DNA of 64,000 bases from Ginglymostoma cirratum (Eukaryota), in the NCBI GenBank assembly GCA_024137785.1, contig JAHRHZ010000145.1, positions 35,729,435-35,793,434 of the forward strand, given 5' to 3'. The notes below the pieces were generated by a model. The model searched no databases. It worked only from the letters and a program-made list of their open reading frames with translations, and was not told where the DNA came from. Position numbers and translations under genes: made by a program. Shown here one piece after another: positions 17,862 to 53,929 of the stretch; the first letter of the stretch is position 1, and each line of letters starts with the position of its first letter.

Positions 17862-18261
17862 NNNNNNNNNNNNNNNNNNNNNNNNNNNNNNNNNNNNNNN
17901 NNNNNNNNNNNNNNNNNNNNNNNNNNNNNNNNNNNNNNNNNNNNNNNNNNNNNNNNNNNNNNNNNNNNNNNNNNNNNNNNNNNNNNNNNNNNNNNNNNNN
18001 NNNNNNNNNNNNNNNNNNNNNNNNNNNNNNNNNNNNNNNNNNNNNNNNNNNNNNNNNNNNNNNNNNNNNNNNNNNNNNNNNNNNNNNNNNNNNNNNNNNN
18101 NNNNNNNNNNNNNNNNNNNNNNNNNNNNNNNNNNNNNNNNNNNNNNNNNNNNNNNNNNNNNNNNNNNNNNNNNNNNNNNNNNNNNNNNNNNNNNNNNNNN
18201 NNNNNNNNNNNNNNNNNNNNNNNNNNNNNNNNNNNNNNNNNNNNNNNNNNNNNNNNNNNNN
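17862..18261. other. Assembly gap (400 N)
   Basis: Run of N. Confidence 1.
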
Positions 18262-29325: not shown

Positions 29326-30198
29326 ATTACAAAGTGCAAAGCATAGATAGTCAGAGCATAACAACTTCTGGAAAAGCTGTAGACGAATCCATCGTTTCAA
29401 AGACTTTTGAAGTATCAAAAATGCATGTGGAGTCCCCTGTGACCATAAAGCATACAAAGAACTATGCAAAAGAAATCAGTTCACAGCAAGAACATACATA
29501 CAGTGTTCAGATGTTTGAAAGTGTTTCCATGAGTTCATCGAGCAAGACCGTTTCTTCTGAAAGATGGGAAGAAAGCCAAAAAATTGCCAAGACAGAAACA
29601 ATCAGAAGTGGCTGCCAATGTCCACCAAAAATTCTGCAAGATATGGATAATGTCACAGTTTTGTTAGGTGAAACGGCATCTCTAAAATGTCAAGTCTTAG
29701 CATTCCCAAGACCTGAAATAAAATGGTACAGAGAAGACCAAGAACTTGTGGAAGTTAAGAGATTAAAAATTGTCACTATAACAGAGGATGAAGTCTTGAC
29801 GTCATCAGAATTAATTATACGAGAAGTTCAAGAAAAAGACACAGGGACCTATAGATGTAAAGCTTTAAATCTTTATGGTGAGGTTAAATGTGAAGCTGAA
29901 ATAACTGTTACTGCCCTTGAGGTTCCCAGGATTCTGCTTGAACTTAGTGATCTGAGGGTGAAAGCTGGTCAGGTGGCACAATTCATCTGTTCTTTTAGTG
30001 GGCAATCTTTCTCAGAGGTCATTTGGAGTCACAGAAGCAAAAGACTGCGAGAATCAGAAAGACTGAAGATTTCTCAGAATGGAAATGTCATGTCACTCAC
30101 AATCCTTAATGTGCATTTAGAAGATCAGGGACAGTACAGCTGTACTGCAAGAAATGAAGGTGGTGAAATGAAGACTACAGCTATACTAATAGTTGAAG
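29326..30198 (+). CDS. TTN: Titin novex-2-like exon (unique sequence plus two Ig domains)
   Basis: ctcag acceptor, gtggtt donor, 873 nt, phase 1-1; VQSIDSQS, YSVQMFESVSMSS and ESERLKISQNGN match human novex-2 motifs as recalled. Confidence 0.9.
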
Positions 30199-30498
30199 GT
30201 GGTTGTTTCTAATTTTATTTACAATCAAAATCCTGATCTATCCACTTCATTGTTTCGTTTCCAAAATAAGTCTAGTATCATGTTAAGAAGATCCTAAATT
30301 TACCATTTAATAGTAAAATATTGAGTTAAACATGTTTAGTTAGTGATTTATATAAAACTTAACACTAGATATTTCATCACACCAATCTGCATGTGTTATT
30401 CAAAACACTGAGTCTTGCTGTTATAAAATTGTACAAATATTTACTTTGCTGAAATTGATAAGACAGTTAACATTTATCCTAATTTTATTCTTGCATAG

Positions 30499-31014
30499 CT
30501 GAAGAATCAAAACCCAAAACAGGTGCAAAAATTCCCACTGATAGCAATTCAGATAGCACTAAAACTGAACAAAGACCACATATTGCATCTGATAGCAAAC
30601 TAGAAGTACTAACGAAGCCATCAAGTCCACCACCATCTTCAACAAAAAGGCCAATTCAAAGAGAGAAGCCAAGGAGCCATGATTATTATCCTGACATAGT
30701 GCCCTTCGATGAGCTGATAGACACTGGAGCCATAGCACCGACTTTCTTAGAAAAGTTGCCACCAGAAGTCATTGTACAAAGCGGAGAAGATGTTTTACTG
30801 TTTTGCCTTGTAAAAGGTGTACCATCACCCTGTGTACTTTGGCTGTACAACCAACGCATAGTTGAAGAATCTTCATTGTGTTCCATTAAACATGATGGGT
30901 TGCTATGCAGTTTAAAGTTACAGAAAGTCAGCCAGAGTCACAGTGGCACTTATTCATGCAAAGCGGTTAACTCTGCTGGAGAAACAGCGTGCAACACACT
31001 ACTTAGAGTGACAG
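30499..31014 (+). CDS. TTN: Additional titin exon (Ser/Pro/Lys-rich linker plus one Ig) between novex-2 and the exon-47 homolog
   Basis: gcatag acceptor, gttggc donor, 516 nt open in phase 1-1; APTFLEKLPPEVIVQSGEDVLLFCLVKGVPSPCVLWLYN...SGTYSCKAVNSAGE. Confidence 0.88.
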
Positions 31015-31446
31015 GTTGGCAATTGCATGCTTTGGTCCTTCCCAATGTGACTCTATCATGCATCTCAGCACATCTCATTGAAAGATTCTTTGCAGAAAGT
31101 CATCTTTTGACCTGTGGATTATTGCATTTCTTTTTTCCTGAAATCAGAATAGGCATGTTGAGGCATGTTTGATGGTTTGATACAGAACAAAATGGAAAAT
31201 GAACTTTTTTTTTGTAAAATCCTGGATGGTCTGAATTCACTTTGTAAATCGACCAGTTGCCTGGTACAGCCTTCTGGAAATCATAATTAGCAACTACACT
31301 TTAATGGTTTTGCATGTATGTTTCGGATGTCTTTGCATATTCCATGTATTCCTGCTTTCATTTTCTTACTTTGCATTTTTAATATAAGAATGGAAAATAG
31401 TATTTTATTCTTGCTATGATATTCAATATTATTCATTTCCATGCAG

Positions 31447-31497
31447 CTCCAAAGATTCAAGACAAAATTGAACAGCAAATAGAAATGGAAGTGAGAG
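31447..31497 (+). CDS. TTN: Titin micro-exon (human exon 47 equivalent)
   Basis: tgcag/gtaata, 51 nt; APKIQDKIEQQIEMEVR versus recalled human APESILHERIEQEIEMEMK. Confidence 0.9.
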
Positions 31498-32740
31498 GTA
31501 ATATTTTTATCATTATTCGATAAAAATTTCTTGAATTTTATATCAATTTTAAGTTCCAATTACTGCCCTGTATGCATTGGTATTTTGCCATCATAGTAAG
31601 TTGTGTTGCATTGCAAAATATCAAAATCGCATGTTATCTGTTTCTATCTGATTTGTTCACAAGTCTGGTTTGTTGTCATCATTTTCATATTGGTGTAAAT
31701 AAAATAATCCTTTAACCTCAATATTTATTTTACAGGCAACTTTACTTTTTTAACATGTATTAGTTCCTCACAATTCAGTCGAATTTCAATTTTGAATTGC
31801 TTATAATCGTAATTGATATGCTGCAACAGGAACATATAGAGATGCATTTTAGATTCTATTAAGAAGTATATAATGAGGTGTTTAAATCAATTGTCAATTA
31901 TTTGCCATTTCATAATTGAATGCTAGACGTATATATTTATTTTATGATTACTAGAATCAGTACTTCTGTTTGCATCGTGCATTTCTGCGTTTCCATTAAG
32001 GTTTACCATACTAATTGCATCTGGTATTTAGGAGGACTTGTAGGGTGCATTTTGCTAAAGAAACTTGGTCAGGGTATTTTTCATTTTTGTGTCTAGTTTT
32101 TCCATTTACATGACATCAGTCTATCTTCATGTATTCACACTGGCTTGCAGATAGCAGTATGTGTTCATGTACGCTGGCATTTTTGCGTAACATTGTGAAT
32201 CTAGCAACTATATTAGTTCGAATAAACGCCTTCTCATGCAAATTAGAAGGATTACTGTTACGGATAAATTTATTTCCTTCTATTTATTAAAATTTTTAAA
32301 TTATTTACCAAACTTGCTATACAATTTACCTATGCTGCAAGGATCAGAAAGGGCGTTTATTCTGCTGTCTGCAAGTCAGGTAAGAGCTTGTAATAATCTA
32401 GCTATCCCCCAATCATTATAGGGACAGATTTTACATTGCAAAACAAAACAAAATTCTGTCATGAGATCACTTTATGTTTCTTTGAAAACATATACTCTAA
32501 TGATTTTTGAGAAGAAATTGCTACAGTCTGAAGAAGGAACAAAGAACGAGCGATTTTCCTGCTCAGAATCTTTAAAAAAGAAAATGGTCTTGCGTTTATT
32601 CGAACAAATATGGTGAGTGAATTTTTATAGTACTTGTGAAAAAGCTTATGGATTACATTCATCATTTCATTGTATTACAGATTTGTGCTGAATTTAATTC
32701 TTATAATGTTTGAACTGAAACTTCATGCTTTTTTTTGCAG

Positions 32741-35700
32741 AATTATTTTTTGATGACGGGAGAGAACATTTGGAGAACAGAGAAAATATGCGGGAAGCGT
32801 TTTCTGATGCTGAAGATTATTTAGATCAGGGACTTGTTTCTGCTGATCGTTGTGCAAGCAGAACATCTTCTATAAGTTCCTGGTCTGAGAATTTCAGGCC
32901 ATCTTTTACTGAAAAGCTAAAATTCAAATCTGTAATGGAAGGAGAGCAAGCTATTTTTAGATGCAAACTTGTTGCCAGTCCTGCACCAAAGGTTGCATGG
33001 TTTCATAACAACAGACCCGTACATAAAGATTCAAGAAGGATTATTAAAATAGATAGCGCGATGCACATTCACAACTCAAGTTTGGAAATCAATAATGTAG
33101 AAGAGAAAGATTCAGGAAGTTACAGAATATTTGCAATAAACTCTGAGGGTTCAGCAGAAGCAACTGCATCTTTACTTGTTGCCCTTAAAGAAGAGCAAAA
33201 TGCAAATTATATCAGTTTTGTGAAAAGATCAGAAATGGCTCACAAGAGCATAGACTCTTTAGTTAAAAAACGTAATGCAAGACTTAGAGTTGATCTCCGA
33301 CATGTTGGATCTCCTTTTGATAAGAAATATCAGGTTCCAGGAATTTTGCATAAACAGCCAAATTCTAAAAGCAAACTGATGCGTACAATGTATTTTGAAA
33401 GAATGCCAATAAAACATGATCTGTTTAGTGATGATTCTGTAGAAATGCAGTCATCTAGGTTGTATGGGAGGATTCACAGCAAGGATAGTTTGATTGATGA
33501 AGACATTAAAATTAAATTACAGCTTTTACGAGAAGCTAAAAGGAGGAAAAGGTTTTCTCTTGCATTTTCTGAAGCATCATTTGACTTGGGCACAGCATCA
33601 ACTGAAGGCAATATGAAGTACAATTATGCTGACTTAGACAGAGGGCGCAGCAGAAGCATGGGGGACCTTGACCACATGGATTTTGATTGTTGTCAGCCTT
33701 ATTTTGTGCAAGGACATGAATTGTCATCTGGTAAATATTTGCAGAGAGAATATCCTGAATTTAAATATCGAATGGAATGGATATTAGGACTTCCTTCACA
33801 TGAAGTAGAACCTCAGAGAGCCCCTGAAGACAATATTATTGAGCAATCTTACAGAACAAAAGATATACATTCATTAAAAGAGCAAGTTCTGAAAGATAAT
33901 TTAACTCAAGAGACAGAACAGTCACAGAAAAATCAACACTGGCTAGAAGAACAAGAAACTGATGAATACTATTTTCAGAAAGAATATGATACAAGAAAAG
34001 AACTAGAGAGTGAACATTGTGAAGAACCACAGGCGCCGTCTAACCAATGGTTTGGATCCACCTCTGGTAAGCAGAGGACTTCACTAACTAAAGGGAAAGG
34101 AGTTATGCTTGAACCTTCCAAGTTTGAAGAAACAAAGTTACTTAAAGAAATACCACAATCTGAAGACAGTGATTGTACGGAAATGCTATTGAAGAAAGAA
34201 TTCCCAACATTCACCAGAACACTGATAAAACAAATTCCTGTGCCATTAAAGAAATATCCAAGTAAGTCTGACTTCAAGGAAGACCATGACTTACTTTCTG
34301 CTAAGTGGTCTGAAAGTTTAATGAGTATGCAGAGTTCACCAGCAAAGGAGACTGAAACTGACCAGTCAATGGTTGATGGTTCCAAAGCAACTGAAGTCAA
34401 TGTATCCAGGTTTGATGAAAAAGCTGAGATAATGAGAGAACGTACACAAAAGCCAAAGCCTTCTCCCTTAGAGGAAGAAGAAATCGCAACCATTTTCAGA
34501 GCAGCATTAGAAGATAACACGTTAGGAAGAAGCAAAACATGTCAAGTTGAAATCAAAGAACATCCAAATGCATTTCAAGACCAAAGGGCTGGGAATGTGT
34601 CAGTAAAACAAACATCTGGATTTGACCATATAACCTTTGATCAAATGAAACCAGTATCCAAGGATAGTGTGACAAGTATCTCTAAAGTCCACCATGAAGC
34701 CATACAATATGAAAATCAAGTTAAAGATTATACCCATATGATGACATCCTCTATTTTACCAGAGCAAAAAGCAACCTCAGGTTTTATCAGTTCTTTGGTG
34801 AAAGAAATACCAGAAGAAGTAAAAGATACTTCTTATAAATCCAGTAAGGTAGACCATGAGACACCTCTGGGACAACAGCCTGAGAGATTCATTCATGTAC
34901 AGAGAGATTTACCAACTCAGAGACCTGAGAGCCATCATATAATGTCTGATCAATCTGAATCATCAGTTAGCCAGGAAGAGATAATTAGTACACCCCAAAT
35001 CAAGCAAAATAAAACACAAGGTGAAGGACAGTTTATATTTTCCATCCATTCTTTGAGACATTCTCCCTTGACAGCAAAAACCAGAGAGAGTGCAACTTTT
35101 GCCAGAACAGTGATAAAACAAAAGCCAATGGAAACAAAAGACTTTCCAAATGAATTTAATGTTAAAGAAGAAAGTGAGCCAATTTCTGATAAAAGGCTTG
35201 AAAGTATTAATCATGCAGAGGAAGACACTCCAGCAGTAACATCTGAAGATATCCATGCAATCCAAATGCCTGGTCAATTTAGATCAACAGTAAATTTAGA
35301 TCAACAGTACAGAAAACATACAGAGGTGATTGGTGCATCTAAACTCAGCCAAAAAGAACAGTATGAAAGCAAGGTTAAAGACTTCACTTCAACGCCGAAC
35401 CCTTATAAATTTAACAAAGAAGAACACTCAACATTTGTCAGTTCATCAACAAGTGAAACAGCAGTAGAAGCAAAAGAATTTCGTTATGAATCCGAAGTTG
35501 AGGAGAGTGGCACAAAACCTCCAGATCAATTTGTTGGAGATTTTGTTAGTATGATGAGAGAGTTTGGAACAGAGCTATCTCCAGCTGCCCATCCTGCACC
35601 CGACAGAGATTTTGTAACAGAAATATCTAAAGATGTCCATGTTGTACCTAACGGAGATTTTGTGGCAGAGGTATCTGAAGATGTCCATGGAATACCTACT

Positions 35701-37888
35701 CGGGATTTTGTAACAGAAATATCTGCAGATGCCTATATTGTGCACAACAAAGATCTTCTGGCAGAAATATCCAAAGATTTCCATCCTGCAGCCGACAGAG
35801 ATTATGTAACAATAACATCTAAAGATGTCCATACAGTGCCCAATACAGATTTTGTAACAGAAATATCTAAAGATGTCCCTATGATACCTGACAGAGATTT
35901 TGTAACAAAAATATCTGCAGATGCCCATCCTGCACCCGACCAAGATTTTATAACAGAACAATCTAAAGATGTCTATGTTGTACCTGAAAGAGATTATGCA
36001 ACAGAAATATCTGAAGATGTCCAAACAATATCTGACAGAGATTTTGTAACAGAAATATCTAAAGATGTTCATGCTGTATCTGACAGAGATTTTGTAACAG
36101 AAATATCCAAAGAAGTCCATACAGTACCCGATAGAGATTTTGAAACAGAAATATCTGAAGATGTCCATACGATACCTGACAGAGATTTTGTAACAAAAAT
36201 ATCAGAAGATATCCATGCTGCATCTGACAGAGATTTTGTAATAGAAATATCTAAAGATGTCCATGCCGCATCTGACAGAGATTTTGTAACAGAATTATCT
36301 AAAGATGTTCATGCTGCATTTGACAGAAATTTTGTAACAGAAATATCTAAAGATGTTCATGCTATACCTGACAGAGATTTTGTAACAGAAGTATCCAAAG
36401 AAGTCCATACAGTACCCGATACAGATTTTGAAACAGAAATATCTGCAGATGCCCGTCCTGCACCCGACCAAGACTTTGTAACAGAAAAATCTAAAGACGT
36501 CTATATTGTACCTGAAAGAGATTATGTAACAGAAATATCTGAAGATGTCCAAACAATACCTGACAGAGATTTTGTAACAGAAATATCTAAAGACGTTCAT
36601 GGTGTACCTGATAGAGATTTTGTAACAGAAATATCTAAAGATGTCCATGCTGCATCTGACAGAGACTTTGTAACAGAAATATCTGCAGATGTCCATGCTG
36701 CACCGAACATCAATTTTGTAACGGAAGTATCTAAAGATGCCCAGCCTGTGCCTGACAGGTCAAAACCAATGGTAAAACAAATAGAGATAACCACCTTTTC
36801 TAAAGTCTCCCATAAAGAGTTACAACCTGCAGATACAACAGTAAGCACTGTTCAAGTAGTACATCCTTCTTCGCCAGATGGCAAACTTGAGCCAACCTCT
36901 TTTAGTTCATTGATAAGAGAAACAGCAATAGATACAAAAGAGCCTGGATATGGATTTGAACTTATGGAAGAACATGAAACAGATTTTGACCAGCAGTGTA
37001 CAGGTTTTGACCGTGTACAAAAGGATGTGCAGTTAGGGAAACCTGAAGAAGGTCATGAGCAAACCAAATTGGCAGAAAATCACATTGAAATAATAAGTGT
37101 AGCTAAAATCAAACAGAAAGAGCCACAATATGAAGCAAAGCTTGTGAGCTCCCCCTGGATGGTAAAGCCTTCTCCTTTACCAGAGGAAATGGAAACTTTA
37201 ACTTATGTCAGTGCATTGAAAAAGCCATCTCCAATTGGCAAAATAGGATCAGGTGACAAAGCAGAATTTAGGGAAAGCCATGAGACAGCTCTTGTCAGTG
37301 CTACCAGAATGCACAAAGACTTCCTGAAAGAAAATCAAGAAGACAGCCATGGAACATCTGATCAATCAACAGATGGAGAAACAGCAATGATTAGCACATC
37401 TGAAAGTATCCAGAAAGAATCACAACAAAAATGGAAAGTTGAAAATAACATCCAAACAGCAAAAATGCCTTCCTTAACTGAGGAAAACAAAACATCAGGT
37501 TTCATCAGTTCGTTCATGGAAGAGACACCAACAGAAGTACCAAGCAGCCAATATGAATTTGTAGCTACAAAAGGGCCTCTGAAACAAGAGACTCCTGCAG
37601 TCAAACATTGCCCACCTACGTTTTTCCATCATATTGCATCTTCTGAAATTAAGCAAGGAGAATCATGTGTGCTTGAGTGCCAGTTTTATGGGCACCCACT
37701 ACCGACTGTAGTTTGGTACAAGGATGAACGCCCAATTTCTCGAAATAGGGACTATCATATTCACTCCACAGAAAACAGCTCTACATTGAGTATTGGGTGC
37801 ACTTGCAAAGAACATGAAGGAGTATATGCATGTGTAATATTCAACCAATATGGAACTGCATCTACATTTGGGACCGTTGTAATACAAG
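32741..37888 (+). CDS. TTN: Titin novex-3, first part (two Ig domains plus a long repetitive unique region)
   Basis: ttttgcag acceptor, gtaaga donor, 5148 nt, phase 1-1; ELFF...AFSDAED...RPSFTEKLKFKSVMEGE...AINSEGSAE matches the start of novex-3. Confidence 0.93.
35590..36741 (+). repeat. Coding minisatellite: 24 x 48 bp (16 aa, consensus HxxPDRDFVTEISKDV) inside novex-3
   Basis: 24 indel-free units counted directly (24 x 48 = 1152 bp); recurring DNA core gacagagattttgtaacagaaatatctaaagatgtccat. Confidence 0.97.
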
Positions 37889-37998
37889 GTAAGATTCACC
37901 ATTCTTTACTGATGAATTTTTTAAAATTAAAGTATGTTGCAATTAGATATTTATGAATTAGGATTTTCAATTAAGATAAAATAACATTTATTTTCCAG

Positions 37999-40900
37999 AA
38001 CCAGAACCAAAGTTGTTTGAAGAGTCTTTGGAAAGGTTTGATATACGTGTGACGGAGGCACCAGAGAACAAGACTGAAGAAGATAATGTTGATCAGCTGA
38101 TTGAAAACGAGATGGAGTCGTATTTTCCAGAATTTGCTGTAACAAGATCCACATTACAATTACCAAAAGTTTCAGCACCCCAAACATGTCCCAGAGGTTT
38201 TTCTTTACTTCCTTCCCCTGTTGAAATTAAAATAACTGCTCCAACCCCAACACCAGAGCAAGATGAGGAACGTAAAGAGTTACTGCAAGAAGATGAATTT
38301 GATTCCAAGGATTCATCTCAGGAACCGCTGTCACAGACTGCAAAGCATAAATTTACTTTCTCTTTTGACGTAATTTCTGAACCGCCACAAGTCGTGAAAG
38401 AACTAGATAGGATTTGTTGTGCAGAAGGAGAATCCGTAATGTTTGAATGTTTAATTTCTGGAGAGCCAACACCTGTTGTTTCATGGATCCAAAATGACAG
38501 AGTTTTAACTGGTGATAATAGCAAGCACCGATTTGAAGAGAGTGGAGGCAAATATAGATTGTACATTGAAACTGTCTCAGCATCTGATATGGGGAACTAT
38601 AAGTGTGTTGCTAAAAATAAAGCAGGAGAAGTACAAAGTATATCAAGTCTTACAGTACAGCCTGTAGTGCATAGTTTTATTTGCCATCTGAAGGATACTG
38701 AGTCATCTGATGAGGAAGCAGAGTTGTCAGTTAGCCGTTTTCTATTCAATCTAAGTAAAACAGAACAGGTTGAAGACATTGAGCAGCAAAAGCAATTATC
38801 AGTACAGGAAGGGCACAGGGATGCTTCTCCTTTATTTAGCATTAAAGAACAAGCACTTAATTTTATTCCTGAAGATGAAGGTTCTGTGACTTGCATTGGT
38901 GATGAATTTTCAAGTAAAGTTTCATCTTTAAGGGAAGGGAACAATAAAGCAAAACTGAGCTCATTGAATTCCTTTTCTGAAGAAGTTTCATCTTTAAGGG
39001 AGGAGGGTGATAAAAAATTCACAGATTCAGCAATGCCCTTTGGTGAATTTTCAAGCAAATGCTCATCTTCAGTGAAGGCTGGTAATAACATTGCCGCAGA
39101 CTTTGAACAGATAGATCAAAAAGTGTCAAATAACACAGTAGAAGAGACATGTTCTATCAGCGAATATTTACGGTCTTTTGATGCAAACCAGAAGTTATCT
39201 AAAGATTGGAAAACGGGAAGGGAAATAGAACAAAATGGGGACAAATGTGCCTCGGAAGGTGAAATGTATGAGGATAGCGTATTTTCAGAAAGTGTAATTC
39301 AGCAAGTCGCTAAAAGTAATGGGGCAGAAACAACAGAAAATGTGTCCAAGATGGAGTTAAGTGGTAACTTAGCATCTCCTAAACCTGACTATGATGTTAG
39401 TGTAGATCCAATAGGAACAACCACAAATAAAGATGAGGGGAGTGAAAATGAGGGGGTTTCAATTGCACAGTATCTCCTTTCCGCAAGACAGGAAGAAGCA
39501 CAGATTCACGAAGAGGCAAATAATGAGACATTTGGCTACGATGAATCTGGAATAACTTCGATGGAGGTTGAGGAAGTAACATTTGCTGCTGTTTATGACT
39601 ACTATAATCAAAATGAAGAGTGGACACGGTCTCTTTCTCCAGAATCTGAAATGTCGATTGAAATTAGCAGTACAATTAGTGATGATGTTTCGGAGAATGA
39701 AAGATTTTATACACCACCTTTGGCTTCTGAAAACTACCGATCTGCTGTGTCTGCAGAGGCTTTCCATACCCCACCTCAGTCTCCTGGCTATGCCACTCCT
39801 CCAGAAATATTGCCTTTACTTAATGTGGGTCGATCTTCTGGTGCTTTACTAGAGAGGTTTCATACACCACCAGAATTTTTCAGAACTCCAATAGACGAGG
39901 GTATTGAAACAACTCCTCTTGAGTCTGTAAGTCTTGCTACTGAAGAGCAAAGATCAGAGTTATTTTCCACACCACCACAAGAAACTGAAGCAAAAGGAAA
40001 TGAAATGCCACCTGCATTTATCAAACCTCTTGTTAGAAAAAGAATTCACGAAGGAGGCACACTTACATTTATCATTGAGGTAATTGGTTGCCCAACTCCA
40101 AATGTTAAGTGGTATAGAAAAAGGTCATTATTAGAGCCAAACCATAGAACTAGACTTGAGAGAGAGGGAGGTTTGTGTTTATTGGTAATCCATAGTATTC
40201 AGAGAGAAGATGAAGGAGAATACACTTGCAGTGCTGTAAACATCGTAGGGGAAGCCAAAAGTGTTACTCGGGTAGATGTTTTACCTCAGGATGGAAGGTC
40301 AATTGCATTGCCACTCCCAGTGACTCATCAACACGTTATAGAGTTTGATGTGCAGCAAGGCCAAACATCAAGGTCTCCTTCACCTCAAGAAATTCTTCTG
40401 GAAGTTGAACTTGATGAACATGAAGTGAAAGAATTTGAAAAACAGATAAAGATTGTTACAATTCCCGAATTCACTCCTGACAATAAAAACATGGTTATCT
40501 CCCTGGATGTTCTTCCTTTGATGATGTCTGATGAACATAACGTTGACTTTTTAATAAAAGATAATGAAGATGTGAAAATTGACTTTGAGGTCACAGAAAT
40601 GCCCCCACGATTTATTAGCCATATTTTTGACTTTGAGATTCCAGAAAACACTGATGCAGTCTTTGAATGCTCAGTAACAGGTATTCCTAAGCCTGAGGTA
40701 ATGTGGTTCAGAAATGATTCACTTATAACATTCGATGGCAAGAAATACATTAGAACAGATACCCCTAATCATAGTCTTAAAATAACCAATGTTTGTCCTT
40801 CTGACAGCGGCACATACACTTGCAAAATAGTGAATAGTGTTGGAGAAACAACATGTAGAGGCTATCTTACAGTAACAAATGCATGTATGGCACTGACAAA

Positions 40901-41510
40901 AGCAGGTGGTAGAGCTGTTGCTGCTATATCATTAACTCGTGCTCAGGAACGTCCCCAGGAATTAGATGTTGATATTGGTAATCCTTTACTGCAGAGCAAT
41001 CAGGGTTCTGAAATCGAGGTTGAGTTTGACATTGAACAAGGTAGAGATGATTCTCAGAAATCAGTGAAGCTCGTAGCCTTGACAGAGAATGCAAATGAAG
41101 ATAAAGGAGAGAAAAGTGTGAACATTAGTTTTGACGTATTTGCTGAGCCTGCCAAGGAGGAGACTATTCAATTTAAGGGAGAAGCTTCTGAAAACTGTTC
41201 ATTTGAATTTCAAGTGACAGAAACTCCTCCAAGATTTGTAATATCCCTCCTTGACTGTATCACCAGCATTGGGAGCATGGCATCTTTTCAGTGTGTTGTG
41301 ACTGGTACTCCAAAACCCAATGTGATTTGGTATATGAATGACCAAGTACTTGAAGATGGCAACTGCATCATTGAGGAAAAAGACTCTGGGCATCATTATT
41401 TGAACATTGCACATGTTACAGAAAGTGATGCTGGAGTATATAAATGCAAAGCTGTTAACAAAGCTGGGGAAGCAGTTTCAGAAGCAGTTTTAAAAGTGTT
41501 GTATTTGTAA
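37999..41510 (+). CDS. TTN: Titin novex-3, second (terminal) part: four Ig domains and stop codon
   Basis: ttttccag acceptor in phase 1; KHKFTFSFDV, ITSMEVEEVTFAAVYDYY, SPSPQEILLEVELDE motifs; ends TAA at 41508-41510. Confidence 0.93.
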
Positions 41511-41548: not shown

Positions 41549-41554
41549 AATAAA
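41549..41554 (+). terminator. Candidate polyadenylation signal of the novex-3 isoform
   Basis: AATAAA 38 nt after the novex-3 stop, followed by T/GT-rich sequence. Confidence 0.55.
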
Positions 41555-45469: not shown

Positions 45470-46486
45470 TACGTTCTTTATGGATTGCTAGACAGCGATC
45501 ACGAACAGGAACTCCTGATTTTCTTTTGCTATTGCCTGAGGATGTTAAAGCCAATGTCAGGACATCATTGCTACTAAGTTAAGAGCAGATTAGCAGGGAT
45601 CAGGCTTTGAGTGGAATGGTGCTACAGAAGTGTTGCATCTATCCTCCGAACCACTGGACCAGGCCCTAGCTTATTAAGTTGCTTTTAAAACATGTAAACC
45701 AAGGTTCACTATTGGTTTGACAACATTGGGTTTCCAAAAGATTAACAGGGTTTACAAATGATATCTGGGTTATTTTTCAGTCTGAAGCTTAGCAGTCTAT
45801 GAAACTCTTTGTTTTGATAGTGTTGTTAATAAAGTAAAAGTAGGAAGACATTTTATTTCAGCTCGCTTATGATACAAATACTGCTCGAATATGATTTATT
45901 TGATTGAAAAATATGTATTTCAGTAACAGAATAAAGTTTATATTAGAAATTATTTGAGCCTTAAGACAATTTTTAACATGCAATACATTTTTTGTGCGGT
46001 AATAAATTGTATCAACGTGCCTCTCCTGGAATGTCGTCATGGCAGAATGTATCTCCACCAGCAGCAAACATCAAACTGCAAAGTCCCTTTTTACTCACTT
46101 TGATTAGGAAATGGAGAATATAGATTTGACATTAAAATTATCTGTAAATAATTGTTCTGGTTTTTCAAAAGTCACACATTTAGCACCAACAAATCTCAAT
46201 AAAGTTGAAGTTAAATAGTTCAATTTTAGTTTGAAACATGACAGCAAGTCTTTATTTATGTAATGAGATGTTCAAAGTAGCAGAAAAACACCATCCTGCC
46301 TTTTCTGACTATTTCTATCTACTTTGGATCGCAGACTATTATAGAAACTGTATTTGTATTATTTTGAAGCAACTTGAGTTTATCATGCAAACATCTTATC
46401 ATTATATTTTGTAATTTTCTTCTAATTTCCAGTATTACTCACATTCAATACGTTTTCTAAAGTTAAGCATCTTATTTTTTATACAG

Positions 46487-49400
46487 AATTTTCTAGCTCT
46501 GTTACCATTGCTGCTGAAGATAAGAGGGAAGATTTCTACAGTAGTGAACTTCATGTGTCAGACAAAACATTTGAACTCAAGCCTGAAACTGCGACCCTTT
46601 CTAGCGTTTTGGAAATAACCACTGATGCTAAGCCTCTACAAACAGTGCCAGTATTCATTAAGCGCATTTCTAGTATAGAGGTAGTTGTGGAAGATGTAGC
46701 TAAATTCTCTGTCACTGTTACTGGATTCCCAAAGCCCTCTATTCAGTGGTTTCATAACAGTAAAAAATTGACTCCTTCGTCAAACTTCAAATTTGTTTAT
46801 GATAGGGATGAATATAGCCTAATCATACCTTATGCAAAATTTACAGATGAGGGAGAATATAGTTGCTCTGCTACTAATACACTTGGAGAGACTTCATGTA
46901 GTGCATACCTGAAGATCAAACCAAAGGAAGGGTTTAAGAAATCTTCTGCAAAGCCCCCACTTGCAAAATTAGCAGATAGAAAAATGCCAGTGATGCCAAC
47001 AGAAATCATACATCCACCTAGGGGTCAGCCACCACATTTTTTCCAGGAACTTAAGTCTTTGCAGTGCCCAGAAGGCCTGCCCGCTGTATTTGAGTACGTA
47101 GTGATAGGCGAACCAATACCAGAAGTTTTTTGGTACAAGGAAAACAACCAAATTCATCAGAGTTTGCATTGCAGCCTTAGTTCTAACTCTGACGGCTCTG
47201 GTTCATTAACTATTAATAAAGCACAGAAAGAGGACAGTGGCTTGTATTTCTGCAAAGCATTTAATCAGTTTGGGGAAACAACTTGCACTGCAGAGCTAAT
47301 TGTGTTCAGTGGTACGTTTGTTACCACTGAACATACAAAACAGGAAGTTGCTCATAAGCAGACATATAAAAAGTCTGTAAGTGACCATGCCACAGAGTCA
47401 CGTCTGTTCATGGTAACATTGCCTGGTGATGCTCAGGCTGAGTTACAAGACAGAGATCAACTGGTCTATACGATAGCTTCTGAAGATAAACATTCTGTTC
47501 ACAGTGAACAGACAGGCATGTTGCATGAGGTAACAGTCTCTGCTGCTGAAGCAACAATTGCAGGGAAGAGTCAGATAGTAATGCATTCACAAACTACTCA
47601 AGAGAGTCTAGGATATGTAGAGCAACATTATGAACCTATTAAAAGTCCACCAATACTTGAATTGTCAAGCACTGAAGTACGGTTAGACGCTGCCCTTCGT
47701 TTGCCCACAGTTGAGGAGCAAACAGTCATTCCGAAGGAAAGTAGCTTTAGCATTAGAGATTCACCTACTATAACGGCTAAAACAAAAAGAAAAGAAACAA
47801 GCATCTTATCTGAGGAAAAGCATCTAATTCCTAGCTCCGGGACTTCAACTCTTGACATTGTAGAAAAAGAAATATCAAAAACAGAGCCTGCATATCCTTT
47901 ACACAGGTACAAGATTGAGGGACATCAAGAACCTCCCAAAGAAGCATTGTTTGCTTTTGAAATTCCCGACGGACAGAAATGTGAAATACAAAGAGAAAGA
48001 AAAATGGAGGTTCATACAGCCGTAGCAACAGAGAACAAAAGAGTAAGACATGAAATGACAAAAGACATACAAACATTAGATGCAGCAAGAAAGGCAAAGT
48101 TGTCAAAGGAGTTGCCAAAACCATTCTTGACGTCTGTTACTGAAAGCCAGAAATCACTGCCAAAGGAATCTCTGTTTGAAGTGCAAAATGGTGACATACG
48201 GCAAGCTTCCTTGATGAAAGATAAGTTTGTTAAAACTGCTTTAACTACAGAAGAAAAGCAACAGCTCATGGGTGAACATGCTGATATAATAATTGGTTTA
48301 GATAGTGCAATCTCAATAACGTCAAAAAAAGAAGAAAAGAAACCTTTGCATTTACAAATTGTGCAGGGACAGGACACTCTGCCCAAAGAGACAACTTTTA
48401 CTTTTGAAGTACCTATAGAAGAGAAAGCTGACACCAGAAGAAGCCCAACTTTGCTACATTCCTTACTATCAGAAGAGCAACATCTTATACCTCAAGAACA
48501 TACAACTCCGTTATCTGATGCAAAAGATACCACAATAATTAAACCTACAAAAGAACATATGCCTATTTTTTGTCCTCATTCTGTGATGACTGCATGCATT
48601 CTTCACAAGGAAGATCTTCTACCTTATGAGAAACCAGCTACTCGTATGGCAGGACACAGACTTGAGAAAGCATATAGCTATGCTGCTGTTGTAGAAGAGA
48701 AACCAGAATTGCTAGCTGAACAAACTAAAATGCTTGTAATGGAAATTAAAAGTTCAAAGGCTGAAGCCAAAACTGAGCTTCTGCCACAAGAGTCTCTTCC
48801 ATCTGTAACTGTACCAATGCACATAGCAAAGGAGAAAATGCTTACCATTGAGGGTAAAGAACAGCGTGCAATCATAAATAAATTGGATGACACAGTCAAA
48901 CAGTTCAGTACTATAACCGAGAACAAGGTAGTGGAAGATGGTTCTGTTGCCATGTTTGAAGGCTTAGATGCAGCAAGCTGTGAAGACAAATATGAATCGA
49001 AACTCCCTTCAATTTCTGTTCAGGTTAAAGAAAAGCCTGTAGCTATTGAAAGCACCACAATGTTAGAAGCTGCAGAAAAGGATTTTGCAGCAAGAATCCA
49101 ACAGGGACAGTCAGTAAGATTTCCATTGTTGCTTCAAGAAAAACACCTCATTGAAGAAGAACATTCTTCAGCAATCGCAAGATCGGAAAGGAAAGTTCTA
49201 AAGGTAGAAAAGCAACCAAAAGAGAAATTTCTCACTCATGTAATACAAGAAAGTGAGGTACTCCAAAAAGAAAAAGTACTTAATGTTGAAGTTCCCCAAG
49301 CAGCCACCTTAGATGTTGGTGTACAGATTAGAAAAGCATTGCAATCTGCTCTGGCAAGTGAGCAATGTGTTCTTTCATCTATCTCATTGGGTGGCATAGA

Positions 49401-50347
49401 AGAGATGGAGATTAAGGAATTAAAAGTTCAAAAAGAACCCAAGTGCATTTTATATACATATCAAGTTACTAATGTCAATCCTCCAATAGACATAACTCTG
49501 TCATTTGAAGGAGAATATCCTCAGAAAGCTGACTTAAGAAAAGAATTGACAGCTGCTTTCCATGCTATTACTCATGAACAATGGCGTGCTTTTCTGGCTG
49601 AACAACTGGATACAATCCGTCCACCAACTGATATGTTAGAAAAATTACACATTAGCATTACTCCTGCTAAAGAGATTTTCTCACCTGAGGCTGTCACCAT
49701 TTCTGAAAGCACCTTTGAGGCCGGGATGCAGTTGACTGAACAGAAACTCCAGACAAATGTTACAGTTTCCCAAGATTATTCTGTAATCTCAAAGAAGGCA
49801 GCTGTTCAAGAAATGACAACAACCACTGAATCAGAGGGTTTTACTCAGGATTTTAAATCTGTGGAAACTGTTGAAGAAGTGACAATAGTGAGTCACATGA
49901 GAGATGTTGGTGGTACAATAATTACTACAGATGCCCCTTCAGCACCTGTTCCAATCGAACAGCCAACAGAAATTCTCAAAAAAGAGAAGGAAATGGAAGA
50001 AGTTATAGGTACTCATATTTCTAAACCAAGAAAGCTAGGTGAAACACCAATAAAGCCCCCCAAAGACAAACCAGTAATTGTTAAAGGACTGACAGACATC
50101 ACTGTTGATGAAGATAGTGAAGTAAAGTTGAGCACAGTCATAACTAAAGTTAACAAGGTAAATTGGTATATCAATGGGAAACGAATCACTTCAAAAAATG
50201 AGTTCAAATGTTTGCAAGAACGTGACACTTACTCACTTATAATCAACAAAGTACAGAAAGAGGAGCATCAAGGAGAATATGTCTGTGAGGCACTGAATGA
50301 AGCTGGAAAAGCAACTACTTCTGCAAAACTCACAGTTATTATAAGAG
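46487..50347 (+). CDS. TTN: Titin N2B exon (I24, I25, N2B unique sequence, I26; human exon 49 equivalent)
   Basis: tacag/gttgga, 3861 nt, phase 1-1; EFSSS start, KALQSALASEQ, and FKCLQERDTYSLII...HQGEYVCEALN of I26. Confidence 0.95.
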
Positions 50348-51590: not shown

Positions 51591-52708
51591 GTAAGTCATT
51601 TGTGGTAAAACTGTGTTTCATTTTAGCAAGTCACTTTCAACTTGATTGTCCTGAAAGTTTGGGTGGTTTTGCATCTATATTTACTTTAAGTATATCCTGA
51701 ATGATTGCTCACTTCCAGCAGTAACAATGTGTGTCTAGATTTTTATATAGTTTGATTATCAAAAATGTTTACTTTTGTAAAAGCTATTTAAGTATCTATA
51801 GTTCTGGCCATCATCTTCTCGGCTTTAGAAAATCATTGCAGTGTTATACTGACAAAAATCTCTGCTTCATTCATGAGACAGAATGGGTTGAATTTTTCCA
51901 TTTGGTTGTGATTCTGACATTAACTTCAATCCAGGTTGAGGACCCCGGTAGCCCAATAGGTGGGCTATCACTCAGGATCTTCCCAGAGGCAGCCAGTTCA
52001 CCTCTCAGACTCCTGTCCAACTGAATGTAGCAAAAGGGCTATTGAAATGGGGAGCCCAATGGAAGGGTGTGCAACATTGTCTGCCCAGTGGTTCCACTGG
52101 AGGGATGGATACTGTTGAGATGAGCAAGAGACTACAAGGGCTCTCCTTAAAACTGAAGTGCTCCCTGGAAAATTGTCAAATGGTCATAATCTCTCATGGC
52201 TCCACCTATAAGGCCATCAGGGTGATTCACCTCAACAGGATGGCTTACAGCTGACAGGCTGTTTCCAGTTAATCATGGGCTTTGACCTCAGTGGATGCCC
52301 TGGCTGTTTACTGGAACATCACAATGGTGGCATTGCTTCCCTGAATTGATCCCAATATGTATTTAACTCGAAAATTAAGCTAGAAAACAAACATTATCTT
52401 TCTTTTTTTCATCTTTAGAAGAAAAATATTTCATTCTGAATTTGTGCATCGCTTAAGTTATCATAAAGTTACACAATGTAGTGCTAAGACACCCAAGTGA
52501 AATAAGAGTGTCTTGTAATTTATTTAAAAATGGCGAATTATATGAATTCTCCAACACATGCTGCAGACAGTATTAGTGCCTTTATTTTTGTTGCCTTTCC
52601 TACTTTCTTTCAAATAAATTGTGACAATATACCGGTCCTAAGTTGGCGCTGGCTGAAAACCTAATTCCTTAAAAACTGAAAATCCTAACCAAGTTGTTTC
52701 TTTTGTAG

Positions 52709-53272
52709 AACTTACCCCACCAAGCTTCATAACGAGACTGCAATCAGTTACAACCTTTGTGGGTAAGACAGCAAAACTTCAGTGCACAGTGGCAGGATCA
52801 CCCGTGATCCATACCACTTGGCAGAAGAATGGTGTCGATATTATTGATGAAGAGAACTACAAAATATCAGTCAAGGACAACAAGCGTATTTTAGAAATTC
52901 ATGACCTAAAGGTTCAGAACAAAGGAACCTATTCTTGCAAAGTGACCAATGACTGTGGTACTGATATTTGCAGTGCTGACCTAACAATACTTGACAAACC
53001 ACATTTCACTAAGACTCTTGAACCTACTCAGACAATACTTAACTGCGGTACGCATCTTGAATGTCAAGTAGATGAAGACACAGCAGTTAAAATCTCATGG
53101 AAAAAAGATGGTATAGAACTTCATGCTGGCAAAGATTACAAAATTACATTTGAAGATAAGACAGCAGTTTTAGAAATCCCGAAAACCAAACTGAAGGATG
53201 CAGGAAATTATGTATGTATAGCTTCAAATGAAGCTGGAAGCGATTCCTGTTCAGCAGCATTAACAGTAAAAG
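52709..53272 (+). CDS. TTN: Titin exon, Ig I28-I29
   Basis: gtag/gtaagg, 564 nt; TTFVGKTAKLQC...DKPHF...HLECQVDED. Confidence 0.95.
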
Positions 53273-53929
53273 GTAAGGAAAGTTATTGATCGCAAACCTC
53301 TGGTAAGGAAAGATGTCATGGTTGCTTTGTATGAAACTAGTTATGGTTTTTAAAATTTTTCTGGGAGGCAGTGTCTCTTGCTGCAGTTTAAACAAATAAC
53401 ACTATTTCTAATTCATTCTTAATTTTGGTTTGCATATTTTACATTTGTGCAGTCATACTTACTGCATAATACTTCCATTAAAATATCTTGATTAAAGGCT
53501 GTTTTGTAATGCAGCCGATTCTTAGCACCATTTTCTAACTTTTATCATTTATTTGAGAGCAAATATATCTTAAATATCTTATTTTATATTGTGAAATTAG
53601 ACATAATACAATTCTTATTACATGTATTACTTGGTATATCATAGGTATATTTCGATTTTCTTTTAAGTGAAAATATACATGGATGTATTTCAATCACAGC
53701 AGCCTTCTTTTCATTTAATTAAATAGCTGTTTATCTTAGATATTCTGTTTTTCGAAACCATATGACTTTAAACTTGTCTAAAAATAATCTTGATCTGAAT
53801 TAAACATCTCTGTCTTAACATGATGAGAACTGTCAAATGAAAAGAGGACCAGTTAGTAACTAAACATTTGGAATGCAGTCAAGCTAATTATAACATTATT
53901 GTGCAATTAGGATTGGACATCATTTGTTT

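Follow-up and report, generated by a model that had tools for sequence, protein, structure and literature searches.

Analysis of a 64,000-nt stretch of the Ginglymostoma cirratum genome (the window in the following) revealed that the novex-3 unit of shark titin is split by an ordinary major-spliceosome intron of 110 nt (37889-37998; this and all features given below are located on the forward strand). We consider it probable, at roughly 70%, that this intron marks an ancestral boundary between Ig modules, which is routinely spliced and was lost in bony vertebrates, thereby fusing two exons into the giant novex-3 exon.

The synteny within the window is that of titin: exon 44 is followed by two cassette exons of novex type, exon 47 with 51 nt, an intron of 1243 nt, novex-3 and an N2B-type exon. 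The exon 47 equivalent (31447-31497), recognized by its AG/GT ends and its length, is a short constitutive exon and the presumed upstream splice partner of novex-3; titin exon 47 is reported to measure 45-57 nt (PMC5852582 Table 1). Novex-3 exon A (32741-37888, 5148 nt) is frame-symmetric, with phase 1 at both ends, and encodes Ig I18, a long unique sequence with an array of 48-nt repeats and Ig I19. The latter (I19 equivalent, 37612-37888) has its F-strand cysteine codon at 37831, and the exon ends at the first base of the codon 19 positions further on (Cys+19). The coding part of exon B (37999-41510, 3512 nt) encodes four Ig domains (I20-I23 equivalents) up to the terminal stop at 41508-41510, followed after 39 nt by the first AATAAA (41549-41554) as a candidate poly(A) signal. 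Further downstream, the N2B-type exon (46487-50347, the 3' end being approximate at a donor-like GT at Cys+21) hosts three Ig domains and opens with a phase-1 acceptor, frame-compatible with exon A. Pfam I-set stretches, two in the upstream and four in the downstream frame, corroborated the assignment to titin novex-3 with 2+4 Ig domains made in a preliminary description of this DNA. The best protein match of the window was a zebra shark "titin-like" protein, with 91% in the part searched and 94% in exon B, and exons A and B are colinear with the novex-3 isoforms of bat and Xenopus, reaching 42-52% to bat in conserved blocks. For the stretch of the Xenopus isoform following exon 44, no match above cut-off was obtained in the window. 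Since mammalian exon 48 encodes I18-I23 (PMC13649281), the intron follows I19. Judged by its sequence and domain order, the locus is the titin novex-3 region, orthologous to tetrapod exon 48 and arranged in two exons rather than one.

Several further features of the locus were observed. Exon A contains a coding tandem array at 35557-36758 with a period of 48 nt (16 residues), 25 copies and 76% matches. About 1 kb of this array is unmatched in the basking shark model, the alignment breaking between 35649 and 36712, and the zebra shark model is ~56 residues shorter across exon A; the array represents a lineage-specific expansion of the novex-3 spacer. Intron 47 harbors a small exon-like element at 32512-32612 with two AG acceptors 15 nt apart (the second at 32527) and a single donor; the resulting lengths of 101 or 86 nt both shift the frame. 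Exon 48' has been described with 100 or 85 nt and the same 15-nt choice (PMC5852582), and the element is likely its shark counterpart. Database models from shark, ray, chimaera and one frog start inside this exon-48'-like element. The two novex-type cassette exons preceding exon 47 (29326-31015) comprise ~870 nt with two Ig domains and ~516 nt with one, both ending at a Cys+19 donor. A run of 400 N at 17862-18261 is far from the novex-3 intron.

Regarding the intron itself, the preliminary description had proposed a phase-1 intron at 37889-37998 with a strong donor and a ttttccag acceptor, bypassing a stop at 37954-37956 and joining exons of 5148 and 3512 nt, and all of these coordinates hold. 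The upstream frame (32719-37956) terminates at that stop, located 21 residues past the Gly at Cys+19 and reached only upon intron retention, while the downstream frame spans 37980-41510; all three reading frames of the 110 nt carry stops. The GC content drops to 21%, compared with 41% and 40% in the two flanking 300-nt stretches. The U1-type donor, AAG/GTAAGA at 37888/37889 (5' splice site GTAAGA at 37889-37894), matches the consensus at 8 of 9 positions and shares the best score among 415 GT dinucleotides of the 8.7-kb region. Towards the acceptor (TTCCAG at 37998/37999), the segment 37972-37998 combines candidate branch-point adenosines (TAA at 37972, TAA at 37977, TAAC at 37982; 16-26 nt from the intron end) with a T-rich tract and the 3' splice site CAG, the pyrimidine content at -22 to -3 being only moderate (55%). 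As 103 frame-restoring GT..AG pairs exist nearby, restoration of the frame alone is a weak argument for the intron. A U12-type intron was rejected based on the donor GTAAGA, which is neither GTATCC nor ATATCC. The search for traces of insertion yielded neither a target-site duplication nor a terminal repeat, the two ends sharing AG only (2 nt); the best terminal inverted match is 3 nt, there is no AG/G context on the 3' side, and a second copy was not found within the 64-kb window (best other match E 0.31). Lacking target-site duplication, terminal repeats and window copies, a recent origin from a transposon or a tandem duplication was rejected.

Of five sequencing runs listed for this stretch, none of them recorded as RNA, the contigs of four were aligned to window positions 36900-39500. 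Run X1 (another species, <90% alike, 133 Mb of contigs, considered as RNA only by guess from the assembly size) provided one 8232-nt contig at depth 36, skipping exactly the 110 nt from GT to AG. Runs X2 and X3 (~97% alike, 2.6 Gb of contigs each, probably DNA; from the same study with equally long contigs, thus possibly one data set) each contributed an 18,066-nt contig passing ungapped, as unspliced DNA, across the intron, and contigs of run X4 gave no alignment to 36900-39500. The intron bases consequently exist as genuine DNA in a second species, and a third species removes them at the predicted sites. The 37888/37999 joint predicted in the preliminary description was thereby recovered exactly, namely from one contig of one run with guessed RNA status and from a species other than G. 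cirratum. The X1 contig extends ~6.2 kb beyond 39500, i.e., roughly 4.2 kb beyond the terminal stop if colinear, possibly representing a long 3' UTR or nascent RNA; an AATAAA cluster is situated at 45828-46198, downstream of the novex-3 stop. Relatives carry a 9-nt insertion after 37053 (X1, X2, X3), and X2/X3 contain a small additional piece that includes a 13-nt repeat at 36985-36997 (36 nt altogether, preserving the frame). In-frame indels are thus tolerated in exon A.

Outside the window, two types of data were distinguished. Database models, being spliced products, were given no weight on whether the intron is present; this was judged from ORFs predicted on raw contigs, since such ORFs end where an intron begins to break the frame. 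The I19 domain runs straight into the exon-B linker in seven chondrichthyan database models (Stegostoma XP_059503180.1, Cetorhinus XP_078408137.1, Carcharodon XP_041057456.1, Pristiophorus, Mobula birostris XP_072117880.1, Hemitrygon XP_072900809.1, and Callorhinchus XP_042192252.1). Among the raw-contig ORFs, the Logan ORF P0068 (1299 aa), one of 12 matches, is ray-like, with 62-63% to the Hemitrygon and Mobula models and 48-54% to sharks. Its start resembles intron 47; at Cys+19 it carries Gly, continues with the first four read-through residues of the window and stops 8 residues past the Gly. Because this ray-like ORF breaks at the same codon, the intron dates back at least to the shark-ray ancestor, which excludes, at the level of species or order, the intron gain confined to this lineage that had been offered as one explanation. 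In agreement with this, the Mobula hypostoma model P0028 opens with the first Met behind the junction, one of the 32 Met of the full ray model, although models also start at arbitrary Met. Across fish, frogs, lizards and birds, novex-3 is widely entered as a gene of its own, named "titin-like", "unc-89-like", "obscurin" or uncharacterised, as seen in database models P0004-P0007, P0011, P0013 and P0038-P0047.

Bony vertebrates show a different arrangement. Exon 48 is listed as a single exon of 6077-8039 nt in all eight species covered, ranging from frog to human plus zebrafish (PMC5852582 Table 1). Every listed length leaves a remainder of 2 on division by three, as do the spliced 8660 nt of the shark but not the unspliced 8770 nt; this includes the in silico figure of 6866 nt for zebrafish (PMC5852582). 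Teleost raw-contig ORFs read through I18 or I19 into the linker, which measures 55-68 residues versus 71-74 in sharks and rays. Two of them, P0036 and P0037 (the latter on a 16.8-kb contig), start in intron-47-like sequence as P0068 does, yet read through; further read-through ORFs are P0052 (23.7-kb contig) and P0050 (JGI/IMG contig). These teleost contigs possibly represent RNA that still contains intron 47, and P0052 might derive from an mRNA with the frameshifting exon 48'. A teleost-like fragment of 124 aa (P0057) starts shortly after the junction and says nothing on the intron. At Cys+19, a residue with a G-first codon was found in 6 of 7 chondrichthyan models versus 1 of 13 tetrapod sequences, and Asp or Glu in 10 of 12 teleost sequences, mostly after Ser, Thr or Ala. 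Near-identical sets were counted once (P0011/36, P0013/37, P0040/62/63, P0043/64/66, and P0049/67), and sequences with an uncovered or unanchored I19 end were excluded from these counts (P0014, P0028, P0030-P0033, P0035, P0056, P0057, P0059, P0065, and P0071). Absence of the intron in the sampled teleosts is highly probable. The suggestion of an intron loss particular to mammals is excluded, considering the one exon in chicken, lizard, frog and zebrafish (PMC5852582 Table 1) and the read-through of teleost ORFs. No lamprey, hagfish, bichir, sturgeon, gar, coelacanth or lungfish was among the 23 identified of 26 protein matches, and when metagenome contigs were screened twice for vertebrate sequence in the vicinity of the junction, 114 and 161 pattern matches resulted, none of which was confirmed.

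Presence in elasmobranchs and absence in bony vertebrates cost one step in either direction and no outgroup was found, so that the position of the donor decides between gain and loss. In order to compare positions, Ig ends were measured from the F-strand cysteine. A long-form Ig motif caught 28 domains in the window, 27 of them besides I19. Among these 27, 17 show a G/GT at Cys+19 in phase 1, one has its donor at Cys+21, one ends in the novex-3 stop and eight are internal to long frames. The predicted donors thus lie at Cys+19 in phase 1 in 17 out of 18 other exon-ending Ig domains, and the novex-3 intron shares both offset and phase. Canonical Ig-end sites of this kind account for 5 of 8660 coding positions (0.06%) or, should a gain require a preceding AG, for at most 5 of 764 AG sites (0.7%). 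As a random gain would rarely hit this offset, loss is favored over gain. Located at the Cys+19 site and free of insertion traces, the intron most likely marks the original end of an Ig exon. For cartilaginous fish, few intron changes are described (PMC3964593); no branch-specific counts of intron gain and loss were found in its supplement, and PMC12198301 mentions neither novex nor lamprey. At a second site in the window (52657-53289), two Ig domains share one frame, the first having Asp at Cys+19 (52936) with G as first base and no donor, which looks like an earlier precise loss of a similar Ig-end intron.

The ancestral boundary would fit a titin I-band that grew from Ig exons whose phase-1 donor has a constant position, as that of exon A does. 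The intron may have been lost precisely and only once, in the stem of the bony vertebrates, or else independently in the ray-finned fish and tetrapod lines. Recombination with cDNA is the usual route of precise intron loss.

Variants of this history differ in where and when the intron was lost or acquired. An ancestral intron that still survives in some or all ray-finned fishes, having been lost only in the tetrapod (or lobe-finned) line, is unlikely. The frequent Asp/Glu at Cys+19 of teleosts would be the expected relic of a living splice junction, set against the single G-first residue in tetrapods; teleost database models, as spliced products, are silent on introns, and several Logan contigs of 8.3-9.0 kb have the size of the exon plus UTR. 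On the other side, P0036 and P0037 read through despite their intron-47-like N-termini, whereas the matching ray ORF stops in the intron; the contigs of P0037 and P0052 clearly exceed that size range, and the zebrafish exon length has the remainder of a spliced form. The donor-less Asp at 52936 furthermore implies that this residue can persist once an intron has gone, or be conserved in the interest of the protein. Even less probable is a single exon in the jawed-vertebrate ancestor with an intron gained at the I19 end in the elasmobranch or chondrichthyan stem. Such a gain requires as many steps as one loss, and the intron has been documented directly only in sharks and in a single ray-like ORF. 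It would improve if Callorhinchus had no intron, since chimaeras without it would imply two losses versus one gain; the elephant shark paper indeed refers to "the Novex-III exon" in the singular in its text (PMC12241362). The Arg-Glu at Cys+18/+19 of the Callorhinchus model is nevertheless compatible with a junction, the site matches the canonical Ig-exon donor to the base at the above chance level of 0.06-0.7%, and neither target-site duplication, terminal repeat nor AG/G context on the 3' side points to an insertion, even though such traces would have decayed.

Two further explanations question the routine removal of the intron or its very existence. The preliminary description had suggested that retention would give a truncated mini-titin, and its arithmetic stands, with Gly plus 21 residues preceding the stop, but no sign of retention was seen. 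A regulated switch, by which retention or cleavage inside the intron yields a mini-titin ending just after I19 and devoid of I20-I23, is very improbable in our assessment. The stop would lie in what is then the last exon, leaving no downstream junction to mark the transcript for decay; the first four read-through residues are identical in shark and ray, an ATTAAA is present at 37926, and mammalian novex exons show intron retention (PMC5852582). Against this, X1 contained the spliced contig only, with no retained contig, loose end or other joint at the junction, in contigs that drop rare forms. The tails also differ (21 versus 8 residues), their shared residues being partly forced by the donor consensus, and an ATTAAA is expected in DNA of 79% A+T and here precedes the stop. 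An assembly artefact or a broken gene, finally, is hardly conceivable and was rejected for practical purposes. The X2/X3 contigs of a close relative pass independently through the same bases, which rules out an artefact of the window assembly as contemplated in the preliminary description; the ray ORF breaks at the same place, and the GT-AG skipping is exact.

With routine splicing, exon 47 would be joined to exon A, as its synteny suggests, and the strong donor right after I19 to the acceptor 110 nt further on, as seen in the contig of one relative. Exon B would then supply I20-I23, the stop and the poly(A) site, so that the mature protein should be laid out with six Ig domains just like mammalian novex-3. 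Being short and rich in A+T, the intron would fit intron-definition splicing between two very long exons. A more far-reaching idea, which we regard as rather doubtful, is that novex-3 is a fusion of two ancestral units still separately usable in cartilaginous fishes, with exon A acting as a frame-symmetric cassette in the manner of its novex-type neighbours. The length of exon A is a multiple of three with phase 1 at both ends, and exon B as well as the N2B exon open in phase 1. Since all Ig exons in the window are of phase 1-1, this compatibility is expected and provides no evidence of cassette use, and the one X1 contig, probably RNA, shows the A-to-B joint only. If true, splicing of exon A to the N2B exon would extend full-length titin by ~1700 residues with two Ig domains, skipping of exon A would give a four-Ig mini novex-3 running from exon 47 to exon B, and bony vertebrates, by losing the intron, would have tied I18-I19 permanently to the short isoform.

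Compared with exon 48 of human and mouse, the shark unit is orthologous and likewise located between exon 47 and the N2B exon, with six Ig domains, long insertions and a stop of its own; it differs by its division into two exons and by its ~2890 codons versus ~2150 in human, partly owing to the 48-nt array. The intron resembles the phase-1 introns closing titin I-band Ig exons in its Cys+19 position, its phase and an AAG/GT context as in most of the 17 other donors. Unlike these, it separates two multi-kilobase exons of an alternative terminal unit and is without a tetrapod counterpart. The text on the elephant shark connectin gene (PMC12241362) names one Novex-III exon, which was left out of the cDNA work, and describes no internal intron. 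NCBI models of the isolated novex-3 region in sharks and rays (e.g., XP_059503180.1) contain the same junction in spliced form; they are listed as genes in their own right, either "titin-like" or uncharacterised, and carry no evolutionary interpretation. The text of the open-access literature searched contained no account of a split novex-3 exon; the joined halves already exist in database models.

For the annotation of shark and ray titin, these data entail a correction, and the novex-3 intron provides a clean phylogenetic character for jawed vertebrates. The protein is unchanged by the intron unless the halves are used separately. In mammals, lateral contacts of the Z/I-band were assigned to the proximal part of novex-3 and Pin1/TBC1D4 binding to I21-I23 (PMC13649281). 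The "giant terminal exon" of novex-3 is probably composite and falls naturally into two halves, I18-I19 and I20-I23, and the shark intron offers a modest clue to how this giant exon was assembled.
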